Of a DNA stretch of 64,000 nucleotides, positions 13,576 to 37,800 are shown piece after piece. A program made the position numbers and the translations under genes. The notes under the pieces were generated by a model that was not told the DNA's origin, did no database searches, and saw nothing but the letters and a program-made list of their open reading frames with translations. Source of the DNA: Vairimorpha necatrix (lineage: Eukaryota); assembly GCA_036630325.1 (NCBI GenBank), contig CP142727.1, positions 558,001 through 622,000 of the forward strand, given 5' to 3'. The first letter of the stretch is position 1. Each line of letters starts with the position of its first letter.

Positions 13576-16500
13576 TGTTGATTATAAATAATAAAATAAA
13601 TAAACCCCTATTCAATGATAAATCCTTATATAAACAACATGGTGGAGAATAATGATCAACCCAGTATAAATAGGAAAAATTTATCCCAAGAATTGATGAG
13701 ATATGAAATATTTAGATGGTTTAAAAAAATGGAATCATTGGATAAAATTGAGTATGTTTTGAGTAAAGCCAGTTACGAAATAATTGAATGGCACTCAACA
13801 TTTATGGAACATACAAGAAGTTCCTCTATAACATATGACAAGTGGAAAGAAGCACTGTATAAAGAATTTAAAGAAGATGAAATTGAACTAGTGGATGTTT
13901 ACCGCCTTTTTCAGAAAAAGGACCAGAATGCAAAAGATTTCATTGACGAAGTTAAAAAGAAATCAAAAGTAGTAAAAATGGACTCAAAAGAATCTATGAA
14001 AATTGTAATGCTCGGGATAAGAAGAGAATTTCCAAATTTAAGAGCATACATAACGAGCTGTTGTTCTTTAAATGATATCGACCTTAAGCGAGTTCTAATG
14101 ATGGAAAAAATTGATAAAGAATTGAACGATAAGATAAGGACTATTTTGGGAAGAGAAGAAAAAGGAAATATGAAATCTGGTCGTAATGGTTCTAAGAAAG
14201 TTAGAAATGATATAATAAAGCAGAAATACGATAACAAAAAGCAGCTTCAAATAAATGAAGTCTTAGAAGACTCAGAAGAGATTATCAATAAAGAGAATTT
14301 AGTTTATATCGAAGACAAAAAATTTTTAGTAGTCTTTGATACAGGATCTAACTACAATTTTATTTCTGACACAGTTAGATTAAAAGCTGGTTTAAAAAGA
14401 AGAAAAAACCATGTCAAACTGAAATTCAGAACCTGTCTTGAGGAAACCTTTGAAGTTAAGTATCATGTTTTATGTGACGTTACTTATAAAAATACGAAAT
14501 ATCAGTTAAAATTTTTTATTTTACCAAAAGTATCCAAAGAAAAAATTTTGATTGGAAAAGATGGAATTAAAGTAATGATAAACTCTAAGGATCAGTATGA
14601 ATGTGAAATAAATACAAAAAAAGACACTATAGTTGTAGAGAAAGTATTTAGCTTTCCCAAGAAATTTGAATCTGGAATGGAAGATACGATAAAAAATTTG
14701 ATAAAAATGAATTATATAGGCCCATCGAAGTCTACATGGCTAAATAACATTCGCCCAGTAGTAAAACCAGATAACAGTATAAGAATAACACTTAATTTAG
14801 TTGCACTAAACAAATTGGTAGAATTAGACAAATATAGCCTACCTAATATAGAACACTTGGTATTTAATTTGAGAGACAAAGAATTTTTTACAAAACTGGA
14901 TTTGAAAGATGGTTTCTTTAACATTCCTCTAGCGAAAAAGGATCAACATAAAACTGCTTTTCGATTTAAGCATTTCTTGTATGAATGGAAAGTAATGCCA
15001 ATGGGATTTAAGAATGCCCCGGCCATATTTCAGAGATATATGGATCATGTTCTAAAAGATGAAATAGGGAAGGCGTGTATCGTTTACGTAGATGACATCT
15101 TAATTTTCGGAGAAACAAGTGAGGAACACGATAGAAACTTATGCAGAGTAATAAAAATATTAAAGGACAACAATCTCAATATTAACGAAAAGAAAACAGT
15201 TTCAAAAGTTAATAAAATAAAATTTTTAGGATACAATATCGAAAGAAATAAAATATCGGCCGAAAAATCGAGAATAAAAGTTATAAACGAATTTCAAAAA
15301 CCAGAGAATAAGAAAAAACTTCAAGAATTTTTAGGAATGATAAATTACAATAGAAAATTCATTCGCAATTGCGCAACGTTATGTGAGCCACTATACAATC
15401 TATTAAAGCAAGGAGTAGAATTCATATGGACAGAAAAACACCAAAACAGCTTCGAAAAATTAAAGGAGGTATTAAGTAAACAAATAGAGCTACATCAGCC
15501 GAATTACAATCTTGAATTTATCCTGGAAACAGATGCGTCAAACACAGGTCTAGGTGCTATATTGGCCCAGGTCGACAAGGGAGTCAAGGTCCCAATCGCA
15601 TTTGCTTCAAGAAGTCTAAATCCTCCCGAAAGAAATTATTCAATAAGTGAAAAAGAATGTCTAGCTATGCTATGGGGAATGGAACATTTTAAATACTATC
15701 TATATGGAAAGGAATTTACTGCCATTACAGATCATAAGGCCCTGGAAGCACTTAACAAAGGAGAAATTAAATCTCTGAGAATCCACAGATGGCTAGATCG
15801 ACTTAGCAACTTTATATTTAAAGTGATTTATAGAAAAGGTGAAGAAATGTCACACGTGGACGCTCTTAGTAGGAGCTTTGAAGGAAAAGAAAATATTGTT
15901 AACGAAGTGAAGGAAAGTGAACCTATATCAGAACAAGAAAAAATTAAATTAATATTCGAAAAGCATAAAGAAATGCTACATAGAGGTGCAAAAACAATTA
16001 TTTATAATTTAGAAAACGAATATAAATGGCCTAATATCAAATCGCTAACCAAAAAGGCAATAGCTGACTGTACCATATGTAAGATGTATAATCCGAAGAA
16101 AAACAAAAAATTTATATTCGTAACAGCGTATTATCCAGGCGAAAAGGTGGGAATAGACATTATAGGTCCTATAGACAAAAATTATATAATAACAGGATTA
16201 GATTACTACACCAGAAAGGGATTTGCTAAGTGTATTAACGATAGGTCTGGACAAAAAATAGCCCAATTTATAATGGAAATTAATAAAGAGTTACAAATTA
16301 AAACTCTTGTTTTGGATTGCTCAAAAGAAAATTTAAGCAACTGTGTTAAAAATGTTGCAAATACAAATGATATCAAGTTACACTACACGACACCATTCCA
16401 TCATCAATCGAACGGAAGAGTGGAAAGGTTTAATAGAACTCTACAAGAGATGGTATATAAAAACGAAAGTGACAAGTTTTTAAAAACAAAAGTAAAGAAA

Positions 16501-16916
16501 GCTATTCTAATTTATAATAATTCTTATCACGTAGGGTTGGGATGTACACCAAACGAAGCCTTAGATAAAGAATATGCAGAAACGGTTAAAAAAACACAAT
16601 TTAACAATATATTAAATTATTCAAAAGCAACAGAGAAATTGCCGAAGGAAGAGGTCTTTACTGTTGGGAATACGGTTTTAATAAAGAACGAAAACGTGAC
16701 AAAGGGAAAACCGAGATATTGGAAAAAGGGTTGTATCTTAAGTAAATTGGAAGAATTCATATTGCATAAAAATTGGCACCAAGTCTTACAAAAGACATGC
16801 TTCGCAACTAAAAAGACTTGTGGACGAGGAGCTAATTCTATAAGGGGAGGGATGTTGATTATAAATAATAAAATAAATAAATCCCTATTCAATGATAAAT
16901 CCTTATATAAACAACA
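13576..16916 (+). mobile_element. Ty3/gypsy LTR retrotransposon family A, 64-bp LTRs
   Basis: LTRs 13576-13639 and 16853-16916 (TGTTG...CAACA, 1 mismatch). 5-bp TSD ACCTA. PBS TGGTGGAGAAT at 13640 (tRNA-Ala-like, U70/A73). PPT AAGGGGAGGGA at 16842-16852. Confidence 0.95.
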
Positions 16917-34898: not shown

Positions 34899-37800
34899 TG
34901 TCGTAGCCCATCAAAAACTAGCCAATCATCTTTCGACAAATGTAAGTATTTGATTGGCTACTAAAACTATTTAAAAACATTTCCAAAAGAGGGGATGGAA
35001 AATTATAATAAACAGTTTGACATGGCGACAACTACAAAAAATGCCAATTATTTTTCGGGGGAGCCAAGTGAAGACGTTAGCACTTGGATAAGAGATATCA
35101 TGTTGTTGGGGGAAGTCTCTGAATGGACAGAGCAGGAAATAAAAAAAGCGTTAATTTTCAAAATGAAAGGGAATGCATTATCCTGGGCATCCCAAATTTT
35201 AGTAGGAAAGATAAACTCTATACCTCTCGAAGACTTTGTAAAAATGTTAAAAGTCAGATTTGGTGCAAGCAAGGACGATGATATTAATCTAAGCAGATTC
35301 CTCTCTCTCCCCATACCAGAAACAAGGGAAGATTTTTCCAAAATGCTAACACAAGCGACTATCATCTCGGGAAGAAATTTAATATACCTAAATGCATTGT
35401 GTAAAATGATCATCAATAAATCCCCATCTGTGATTAAGCCACTGTTATTCCAAGCTTCAAAATCCGCCGAAACATGGGAAAACTTCATTCAAATGGCAGA
35501 AGAAATATCTTGGATAGCTTATCCAGATAAAATGTTGTCAAGGGTGGAAGATTACGGAAATAATAAATTAAACGCGTATAGTTATGGCAAAGGGCCAACT
35601 TTAAAAGAAAACTATGGCAAGGGGCCATATAACAACAGAAAATACGGCAAGGGACCGTCTAACGGAGGGAGACAGACAGGAAACTCCTATAAAAACAAAA
35701 AGTATTGTATTGTACATGGAGAAGGATCCCATGTTACTAAAGAATGCAATAAATTGACGAAATTCATCGAGGACGAAAGAAGAAAACATCCTAGCAACCT
35801 TAATATAGTAGAAGAAGAAGCGGAACTAGACAAAAAAATAAATGATGATATTTTTTATTCATTATGCAGAGTTATCAACGACGACAATCCTTTTTTCATA
35901 GAGGGTTATATATTTAATAAAAAGAAGAGCGTTCTATTAGATACTGGTGCTGATGTGTCACTCATTGGTTATCCAGACATCCCGAAACATCTAAATAAAC
36001 ATATCAACACATATTCGGGGATTGTCAAAGGAGCGGGAAATAACACGTTAAAAATAGTTGGACAACTAAAAAATTGCACCATAACAATAAAGAATAAAAC
36101 TATTACATTCTCTCCATTGATAATGCAAGATACGCGGTATATAATCCTAGGATCCGAGGTTATAAAAAGAAATTTGAAATTAGTCACCGAGATATTTACA
36201 GAAATATCTCCAAATGCTAAACAAAAGGTTAATTACTGTAACGATCTAACGAAATCAAAAATAGAGGAAGAATTTAAAGACTTATTCAAGACAGAAATAG
36301 GAGAATTTAATCTATGTACAGCTGGTAAACATAGCATAGAAGTTAATTGCAAAAAAACAATTTGCCAAAGAAATGGTAGGATACCGGTTGCACAAGAGGA
36401 CATAATTGAAAAGGAAATTCAGAAATTACTCAAGCTGGGAATAATCAGAGATAGTAAAAGCCCCTGGTGTAGTAGGATAGTCATGGTTCCGAAACCCGAT
36501 AAAACTTGGAGAATGTGCATAGATTATAGGGGATTAAATTCTATAACAGTCAAGGACTCATACATGTCCCCTAGAATTGACGAAATTTTAGATAGTTGTT
36601 GTAAAGCTTCATTTTTTACAATCTTAGACGCCACAAGTGGATTTCAACAACTCCCCATGGAAGAAAAGGACAAAGAAAAAACAGCCTTTTCATTTAGGGG
36701 TCGTTTATATGAATACAATAGGATGCCGTTTGGACTTTGCAACGCTCCGGCCACATTTCAGCGAGCGATGGACAATATTTTTAGATGTGAAAACAGAAAA
36801 TTTATAATACCCTATCTAGATGATATCATTATTTATTCTAAAACCAAGGACGAAAACGATAAACATTTACAAATAGCGTTAGGAAAAATTAGGGCCGCTG
36901 GGTTATCACTCAATTTAAAAAAATGTAAGTTCTATAAAAATGAAATTAAAATTTTAGGAAACATCATAGGAAACGGATATATAAAAGTTGATCCTGAAAG
37001 AATTAGTCAAATAAACACCTACCCAATACCTACCACTATAAAGGAATTAAGAAGCTTCCTAGGTACTGTTAATTACTGTAGAGACTTTATTAAAAACATA
37101 GCATCCCTTACGGGACCACTATATGATATATTAAAAGGAGAAAAACTAAGTTCCAATAAAAAGATCCACTTAACCGAAGAACAAACAGATTCATTTAATA
37201 AAACGAAATTAGAAATGGGAAAAAGCACAATCAGGACGCAGCCCGATTTTCAGAAGCAATTCATACTTATGACGGATGCTTCGGATTCAGGAATAGGAGC
37301 TGTTTTATTGCAAGAGAACGAAAAAGGCGAAGAAAAAATGATCGCGGCATACAGCAAAAGACTTGATAAATGCCAAAAAAACTATTCAGTAACTGACAAG
37401 GAATTATTGGGCCTAATAAAAGGAATAGGCCACTTTCGCCATTACCTATTAGGGAAAAAATTTATCCTTAGAACTGACCACAAAGCTCTTATCTATCTCA
37501 TGCAAACAAAAGACCCATCTAGCCGACTTTTAAGATGGTCATTGAAACTTGCCGAATACGATTTCAAAATAGAACACGTAAAGGGAGACGATAATATAGC
37601 AGACGGATTTAGTAGATTTTTTCAACAAAAAGAAATAAATAAAGTAAATACACAAGAACTAAGTGTAGAGGACAGAAAGCAAATTCTTATAGAATACCAT
37701 AATATTTCGGGCCATGGTTCTACAAACACCATGAAATTCATGATTTCCCAAAATTACGCGTGGAAAAACATGCATAGAGATATAGAAAAATTTTGTTCAC

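Follow-up and report, generated by a model that had tools for sequence, protein, structure and literature searches.

Reading Frames That Open inside the Long Terminal Repeat and Cross the Primer-Binding Site in Compact Ty3/gypsy Elements of Vairimorpha necatrix

We analyzed a 64,000-nucleotide (nt) stretch of the Vairimorpha necatrix genome (assembly GCA_036630325.1, contig CP142727.1, positions 558,001 to 622,000 of the forward strand), referred to below as the window. Three complete long terminal repeat (LTR) retrotransposons, A, B1, and C, were found in it by a direct-repeat search combined with reading of the repeat ends. In each of them the open reading frame (ORF) of the polyprotein opens inside the 5' LTR and continues through the primer-binding site (PBS). 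We interpret this layout as a host-type start placed in the LTR, a single frame through the PBS, a near-leaderless RNA, and inheritance of the arrangement across whole clades. We assign this interpretation a probability of about 0.65.

Reading Frame across the LTR/PBS Junction

The ATG inside the LTR lies at position 40 of 64 in A, 34 of 49 in B1, and 97 of 124 in C. These LTR ATGs (13615, 25904, and 34995) and a second ATG at each junction (13639, 25919, and 35022), formed by the last A of the LTR and the TG of the PBS, are all in the polyprotein frame. Both sets of positions had been put forward in an earlier note on this DNA, and all of them held on re-reading. The LTR ATG adds 8 (A), 5 (B1), and 9 (C) codons ahead of the junction ATG. 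Because a gap-free ...A/TGG junction always gives an ATG, the finding is that this ATG is in frame and open, not the ATG itself. Chance was estimated from the triplet frequencies of the window (0.071 for a stop and 0.018 for ATG). For a junction ATG to fall in frame with no stop before the next Met, the probability was 0.08, 0.08, and 0.05 for the three elements, respectively, or about 3 × 10–4 jointly. An upstream in-frame ATG before a stop is expected with a probability of 0.20 in each element and 0.008 in all three.

Conservation of the encoded residues bears directly on whether the PBS is translated. An alignment of six sequences from the C clade contained the invariant residues M10, A11, F20, G22, E26, D27, and W31. 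M10-A11 correspond to the junction ATG and the second PBS codon, and the next Met of C is residue 36. Since the invariant residues precede that Met, translation should start at or before the junction, with the PBS as coding sequence. Element A aligns with the related protein P0121 from residue 15, and its next Met is residue 28; the junction sequence N-M-V-E is common to A, P0064, P0121, and the related DNA element L165. Element B aligns with P0016 from residue 1 with the junction Mets one position apart, and the PBS of P0016 encodes M-A-S against M-G-A in B, such that two PBS-encoded residues differ. As judged from these alignments, conserved gag residues ahead of the next Met show that the C clade and A have a coding PBS. 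This agrees with the earlier claim that the open frame includes the PBS.

Relatives with the Same Layout

The layout recurred in sequences from several sources. A database protein named for V. necatrix begins with a nine-residue peptide resembling that of C and then reads M-A-T-T-T. A Pseudoloma protein and one Nosema granulosis protein have 13 and 22 residues, respectively, before M-A-S or M-A-T, and another N. granulosis protein starts at M-A-T-T-T itself. Three DNA relatives with both LTRs present (L081, L082, and L165) were recovered as eukaryotic contaminant contigs from a scan of prokaryote genome records. In L082 (LTR of 75 nt), CCC abuts the ATG, which is followed by 10 codons including an in-frame AATAAA and then by ...GACA/TGGCGAC. 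In L081 (LTR of 176 nt), GGG abuts the ATG, and 16 codons, again including an in-frame AATAAA, lead to ...AACA/TGGCGAC. In L165, a relative of A with an LTR of 58 nt, CCC is followed by 18 nt without an ATG and then by the junction ATG, and its PBS begins like that of A. Counting B2, an older copy of family B in the window, the junction ATG is in frame in all seven elements defined from DNA (A, B1, B2, C, L081, L082, and L165). Six of the seven have an LTR ATG, and in all six a CCC or GGG run lies 0–6 nt upstream of it. At the other end, the ORF stops within the first bases of the 3' LTR in L081, L095, and L165. The starts of L095, L171, and L175 were left unscored, as these contigs do not define the LTR end.

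The two LTR copies of L081 (68–243 and 3853–4024) differ precisely in the motif ahead of the ATG (5' copy, GGAGGG; 3' copy, GGGCCC); the G run and C run are swapped and the ATG is kept. Compact eukaryotic Ty3/gypsy contigs were present in two bacterial metagenome-assembled genome (MAG) records, G001 (L081, L082, L095, and L165–L191; 48 matches in this record) and G002 (L083). These contigs evidently represent contamination from a microsporidian-like organism.

Comparison with Other Ty3/gypsy Loci

To place this layout, LTR pairs were sought in 160 other fetched loci, with LTR ends defined by BLAST. The metagenome scan returned generic Ty3/gypsy sequences of 23–33% identity, which were used only as a rough control. 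An LTR pair was present in 37 loci; 12 were dropped as the repeat touched the contig end, and L081, L082, and L043 (no ORF) were set aside from the remaining 25. In the resulting 22 loci, several of which belong to one family, the first ATG came 18–867 nt after the LTR end in 20, with a median of about 58 nt. The earlier statement that Ty3/gypsy elements usually have a leader after the PBS is thus borne out, though this leader is often short. Many of these first ATGs fall 18–74 nt past the LTR, just beyond the PBS, and a spacer of 1–3 nt blocks formation of a junction ATG. The step from such starts to no leader is therefore small. On this control, a leader after the PBS is the rule but often a short one, and the microsporidian layout can be viewed as the end of a continuum.

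The two remaining loci, L099 and L100, belong to one animal-like family and lie on GC-rich contigs near position 1083. Their ATG is 47 nt inside the LTR, and the frame reads through a spaced PBS. In the sister copies L092 and L101, the start lies 27 nt past the LTR.

Start Context of Host Genes

As a host set, we used 13 mechanically called ORFs of at least 150 amino acids (aa) outside the elements. CCC occurs within 12 nt upstream of the first ATG in 10 of the 13 and abuts the ATG in 8. As background, CCC or GGG was present in 6.7% of random 12-mers and within 12 nt upstream of 8.7% of all 2312 ATGs in the window. The LTR ATG follows CCCC by 6 nt in A, CCC by 5 nt in B1 and B2, and GGGG by 0 nt in C. 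In each LTR the run is itself preceded by an A-rich stretch. The earlier note had placed the ATG directly after the run in all three families; this is correct for C, where the two abut, and incorrect for A and B, which have gaps.

Published work on Encephalitozoon cuniculi and other microsporidia describes 5' untranslated regions (UTRs) of less than 7 nt and a CCC-like, or rarely GGG-like, motif directly before the start (PMC2803860). In Nosema ceranae, CCC is enriched at –10 to –3 (PMC2685015). Together with the host ORFs of the window, these descriptions fit the earlier proposal that the LTR ATG sits in the context of host genes. The likeness lies in a motif 0–6 nt before the first LTR ATG in A, B, C, L081, and L082. 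Unlike in host genes, the motif of the elements sits in a terminal repeat, is thereby duplicated at either end of the element, and has to be compatible with the functions of U3, R, and U5.

Five ORFs of about 300 aa in the window start with ATG-T[TA]T-TT right after CCC: 11163–12065 (+), 17939–18865 (+), 23974–24879 (+), 30140–31042 (–), and 44984–45937 (–). A 92-nt repeat occurs in two of them, with 76% identity between the copies. These ORFs look like a local multigene family; two of the five were searched against Pfam, and neither reached the cut-off. A full-length serpin gene (60375–61520, –; Pfam Serpin, E 7 × 10–46) is also preceded by CCC-ATG.

Proposed Expression and Competing Starts

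According to our interpretation, transcription would begin, as it does in host genes, a few nt downstream of the CCC/GGG run. U3 would then span roughly LTR positions 1–33 in A, 1–28 in B, and 1–96 in C. R and U5 together would measure only about 20–30 nt and be translated, and the genomic RNA would be nearly leaderless; such a transcript is a prediction from the position of the run. The start codon would be the LTR ATG where present and otherwise, as in L165, the junction ATG arising from ...A/TGG. The poly(A) signal would lie in U3 in A and B and in R in the C clade, in which the AATAAA that is translated in frame as N-K between the ATGs would probably act as the poly(A) signal of the 3' LTR.

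The primers would be tRNAs, as all of the PBSs begin with TGG and self-priming is excluded. Self-priming of the Tf1 type was rejected, the best ungapped match to the PBS complement in the element's own LTR being 6, 6, and 7 of 12 for A, B, and C, respectively. The only tRNA gene in the window was also rejected as a primer source, its 3' end fitting none of the three PBSs. This gene (5388–5470, +, 83 nt) was called tRNA-Ser (aga) by ARAGORN; its length and the surroundings of the anticodon suggest that it contains an intron and may be mis-typed.

Several observations weigh against this interpretation. The transcript start, the poly(A) site, and the initiation codon of A, B, and C are all deduced from sequence, and strand transfer in B would have to work with a very short R, of about 20 nt or less. 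CCC abuts the ATG in 8 of the 13 host ORFs, as opposed to the gaps of 5–6 nt in A and B. Short leaders are not universal in microsporidia, since Edhazardia aedis shows 5' UTRs of 255–348 nt (PMC2474625). The trait is not exclusive to microsporidia, as L099 and L100 open in the LTR. No N-terminal pattern of the kind described below was seen in 21 of 38 short proteins. The LTR-encoded peptides are poorly conserved except for N-K, which arises from the AATAAA common to C, L081, and L082; the V. necatrix and Pseudoloma proteins have N-K at this place as well. Its conservation may reflect a nucleotide signal for poly(A) addition rather than protein function. Finally, L165 and four proteins (P0004, P0028, P0079, and P0129) lack an upstream ATG and begin at the junction Met, which makes the LTR ATG dispensable.

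This last point leads to a different view of initiation. As L165 has no LTR ATG, the junction ATG may be the universal start. Translation would then begin there in all elements, with the PBS still coding, on an RNA with a short R-U5 leader of about 15–30 nt, and the LTR ATG would lie upstream of the transcript start or be incidental. The presence of an in-frame junction ATG in all seven DNA-defined elements speaks for it. So do the invariance of M10-A11 in the C clade, with an upstream peptide that varies from 0 to 22 codons, and the proteins P0004, P0028, and P0129. We nevertheless consider a junction start in all elements unlikely. An upstream in-frame ATG occurs in 13 of the 17 junction-Met proteins, against a chance of 0.20, in a heuristic count over proteins that are not phylogenetically independent. 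The run 0–6 nt ahead of the LTR ATG in all six DNA cases occupies the position seen in host genes, and no out-of-frame ATG falls between the motif and the LTR ATG. A start at the next downstream Met (residue 28, 26, and 36 in A, B, and C, respectively) would place the PBS in a short leader and make the open junction a matter of chance. Ty3/gypsy elements do normally start after the PBS, as in 20 of the 22 rough control loci, and the upstream extensions are short. However, the joint chance of about 3 × 10–4, the invariant gag residues that the C clade has ahead of this Met, the homology between A and P0121 from residue 15, and the recurrence of the layout in L081, L082, and L165 make such a start very improbable.

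Our interpretation of a host-type LTR start can be carried further. One entire microsporidian lineage of Ty3/gypsy elements may be under an obligate rule of no untranslated interior. The junction would make the start codon, translation would cover R, U5, and the PBS (extending in some elements to the polypurine tract and the first bases of the LTR), and the RNA would be effectively leaderless. We put this generalization forward tentatively, at slightly less than even odds. If it is true, the same few dozen nt would serve packaging and translation as well as priming and strand transfer, the last with an R of at most about 20 nt.

Probable Inheritance of the Layout

The earlier note had proposed that the three families reached the layout independently, converging on host-style expression. 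In its favor, the pol parts of the A, B, and C polyproteins are only 31–36% identical, and their PBSs differ. To examine the relationships, a tree of the reverse transcriptase (RT)–RNase H (RH) region was built from 77 rows by a quick method (LG+G4, SH-aLRT as the only support, unrooted). It included all 54 proteins of up to 1400 aa with a near-full RT-RNase H region (3 duplicates dropped) and every fourth of 89 longer proteins. A and B fell in one clade of 32 short proteins (support 99), together with 9 further holders of the N-terminal pattern. C was assigned to a separate 8-member clade (support 99) whose neighbors, in the opposite half of the tree, are long animal-like proteins.

The N-terminal pattern was scored by a heuristic on 38 non-truncated short proteins after removal of duplicates; it matches about one protein in six by chance. 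In 13 of the 38, a Met-A, Met-V, or Met-G pair occurs among the first 32 residues and is preceded by another Met; four begin with such a pair. Each family has relatives, also in other organisms, with the same layout. They comprise, for C, the V. necatrix, N. granulosis, and Pseudoloma proteins as well as L081 and L082; for A, P0064, P0121, and L165; and for B, P0016. Because close relatives of each family already have it, the layout was not acquired by these three families here. Convergence is distinctly unlikely in view of these relatives and of the single supported clade that holds A, B, and the 9 further proteins. C does sit in a well-supported clade of its own, in a tree whose missing root and biased sample leave the origins uncounted. 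The sequences fit inheritance of the layout within clades with at most two origins, and one ancestral origin fits equally well.

Classification and Known Systems

Pfam matches in A, B, and C follow the order protease (PR), RT, RH, and integrase (INT) of Ty3/gypsy elements; in B, protease had no match at the Pfam cut-off. All three have a tRNA-type PBS (TGG...) at the 5' LTR and a polypurine tract at the 3' LTR. TG...CA ends with a 5-bp target-site duplication are complete in A and C, and B ends in TG...TA without a clean duplication. No chromodomain, the integrase C-terminal mark of the chromovirus branch of Ty3/gypsy, was found among Pfam family matches with E up to 0.001 in the three elements. 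Membership in Ty1/copia was rejected, as the integrase follows RNase H in each. The closest matches among named proteins are from V. necatrix, N. granulosis, and Pseudoloma neurophilia. Searches with the gag parts of A and B alone found no homologue, and scans of viral contigs found no close relative. A, B, and C are probably three distinct, recently inserted, autonomous Ty3/gypsy elements of the Nosema/Vairimorpha type, shrunk to 3.1–3.9 kb.

The GAG frame of Ty1 opens in the 5' LTR, and this element is 5.9 kb long with LTRs of about 330 nt. Ty1 (Saccharomyces cerevisiae; Ty1/copia, Pseudoviridae) resembles our elements in that the PBS lies inside the GAG ORF, for which it is the established precedent, and it differs in that a 5' UTR of R and U5 precedes GAG (PMC4974528). 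In Ty1 the integrase comes before RT, which places it in another superfamily than the PR-RT-RH-INT elements described here. It also uses two frames joined by a frameshift, as opposed to a single frame, and initiator tRNA-Met as a primer. Our elements, by comparison, have LTRs of 49–124 nt and a start codon located either at the LTR/PBS junction or shortly upstream of it. They resemble Ty1 in function and are not members of its group.

The Nbr elements of Nosema bombycis, reportedly described by Xu et al. in 2006, are said to be microsporidian Ty3/gypsy elements. Microsporidia-specific Ty3/gypsy clades are known from Parisot et al. (2014), and the groups described there share with our elements a single polyprotein without separate gag and pol (PMC4202319). 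The main text of PMC4202319 mentions neither PBS nor primer nor leader. Full-text searches of the literature turned up no account for microsporidia of coding across the LTR/PBS junction or of comparably short LTRs, although an earlier one is possible. The new aspect here is a PBS/gag overlap like that of Ty1 in very small Ty3/gypsy elements, with a host-type start inside very short LTRs.

These elements illustrate how small an autonomous retroelement can become in a host with minimal promoters and almost no 5' UTR, with LTRs down to 49–124 nt and cis signals embedded in codons. To our knowledge, at 3.1 kb with a 49-nt LTR, they may be the most compact autonomous LTR retrotransposons. They provide a natural setting in which to study the minimum length of R and U5 and raise the question of how the tRNA primer and ribosomes share the first gag codons. 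LTR-finding programs usually apply a minimum LTR length of about 100 nt. As LTRs below this length may escape them, such elements may be annotated as lone "pol polyprotein" genes. Several relatives lie on contaminant contigs within MAG records filed as bacterial.

Structure of the Elements and Other Features of the Window

The two LTR copies differ by one mismatch in A (64 nt) and in B1 (49 nt) and are identical in C (124 nt). A clean target-site duplication was not found in the flanks of B1. Three AATAAA motifs occupy LTR positions 15–29 of A, and ATTAAA occupies positions 20–25 of B1; in A and B these motifs lie directly 5' of the C run. In C, AATAAA (35007–35012) lies between both ATGs. TGG directly follows every 5' LTR, and a G-rich purine run directly precedes every 3' LTR. 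All coordinates are collected in Table 1.

Table 1. Coordinates of the LTR Elements and Their Parts in the Window
Feature	Positions	Strand	Details
Element A	13576-16916	+	3341 nt; direct repeats, ends read
A target-site duplication	13571-13575, 16917-16921	+	ACCTA
A 5' LTR	13576-13639	+	TGTTG...CAACA ends; CCCC 13605-13608; in-frame ATG 13615
A junction ATG	13639-13641	+	LTR-final A plus PBS TG; in frame, residue 9
A PBS	13640-13651	+	starts TGGTGGAGAAT; 3' limit inferred; translated M-V-E-N-N
A gag-PR-RT-RH-INT ORF, literal	13615-16935	+	1106 aa; frame change near 16750
A polypurine tract	16844-16852	+	GGGGAGGGA
A 3' LTR	16853-16916	+	
Element B1	25871-29013	+	3143 nt; direct repeats, ends read
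B1 5' LTR	25871-25919	+	TG...TA ends; CCC 25896-25898; in-frame ATG 25904
B1 junction ATG	25919-25921	+	in frame, residue 6
B1 PBS	25920-25932	+	TGGGGGCGATACC; 3' limit inferred; translated M-G-A-I-P
B1 single ORF	25904-28948	+	1014 aa; gag with CCHC knuckle, then RT-RH-INT
B1 polypurine tract	28955-28964	+	GGAGGGGGGA
B1 3' LTR	28965-29013	+	
Element C	34899-38799	+	3901 nt; direct repeats, ends read
C target-site duplication	34894-34898, 38800-38804	+	CGATT
C 5' LTR	34899-35022	+	TGTCG...TGACA ends; GGGG 34991-34994; in-frame ATG 34995
C junction ATG	35022-35024	+	in frame, residue 10; invariant in clade alignment
C PBS	35023-35035	+	TGGCGACAACTAC; 3' limit inferred; translated M-A-T-T-T
C single ORF, gag-PR-RT-RH-INT	34995-38666	+	1223 aa
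C polypurine tract	38667-38675	+	GTGAGGGGG; directly after TGA stop
C 3' LTR	38676-38799	+	same sequence as 5' LTR
Element B2	50330-53459	+	older frameshifted family B copy; LTRs 50330-50378, 53411-53459

The ORF takes up 94–97% of the length of each element. Only 9 (A), 16 (B1), and 9 nt (C) between the LTRs are untranslated, comprising the polypurine tract and, in B1, 7 further nt. The stops of B1 (28946–28948) and C (38664–38666) lie 16 and 9 nt, respectively, before the 3' LTR. The literal ORF of A crosses the polypurine tract and the 3' LTR and ends at 16935. The C-terminus of the relative P0064 follows the +1 frame of A from about 16750, a weak match of 21 residues (E 0.27), and the stop of this frame (16841–16843) falls 9 nt before the 3' LTR, directly 5' of the polypurine tract. 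As P0064 tracks the +1 frame, the window copy of A appears to carry a late frame change. The stop positions given in the earlier note held for B and C, and its stop at 16843 in a restored frame of A is reasonable on this weak match.

The older copy B2 keeps CCC, the LTR ATG, the junction ATG, and the PBS, with both ATGs in frame. The LTRs of B1 and B2 differ at positions 4–29 and, in one copy, at the last base, and none of the differences fall at positions 30–48; they are too few to claim constraint.

The window is AT-rich, with a GC content of 23–35% per 2 kb, and neighboring genes encode an RRM protein, a glutathione synthase, a DHH phosphoesterase, and the serpin. A contig set of a type not known (X1) was aligned to 13400–33399. 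Its summed depth was about 13–24 over A and 18–43 over B, compared with about 1.4–2.8 over nearby host sequence, and these contigs are uninformative on transcript starts. One of them joins the 3' end of A, an LTR, and the 5' end of A, which is most simply explained as an assembly collapse of the repeat. A GC-richer region at 20070–22737 without a long ORF reached a summed X1 depth of about 39–354, compared with the same nearby host sequence. Part of it (22036–22136) recurs at 63528–63628 with 79% identity. This region is probably a high-copy degraded repeat.

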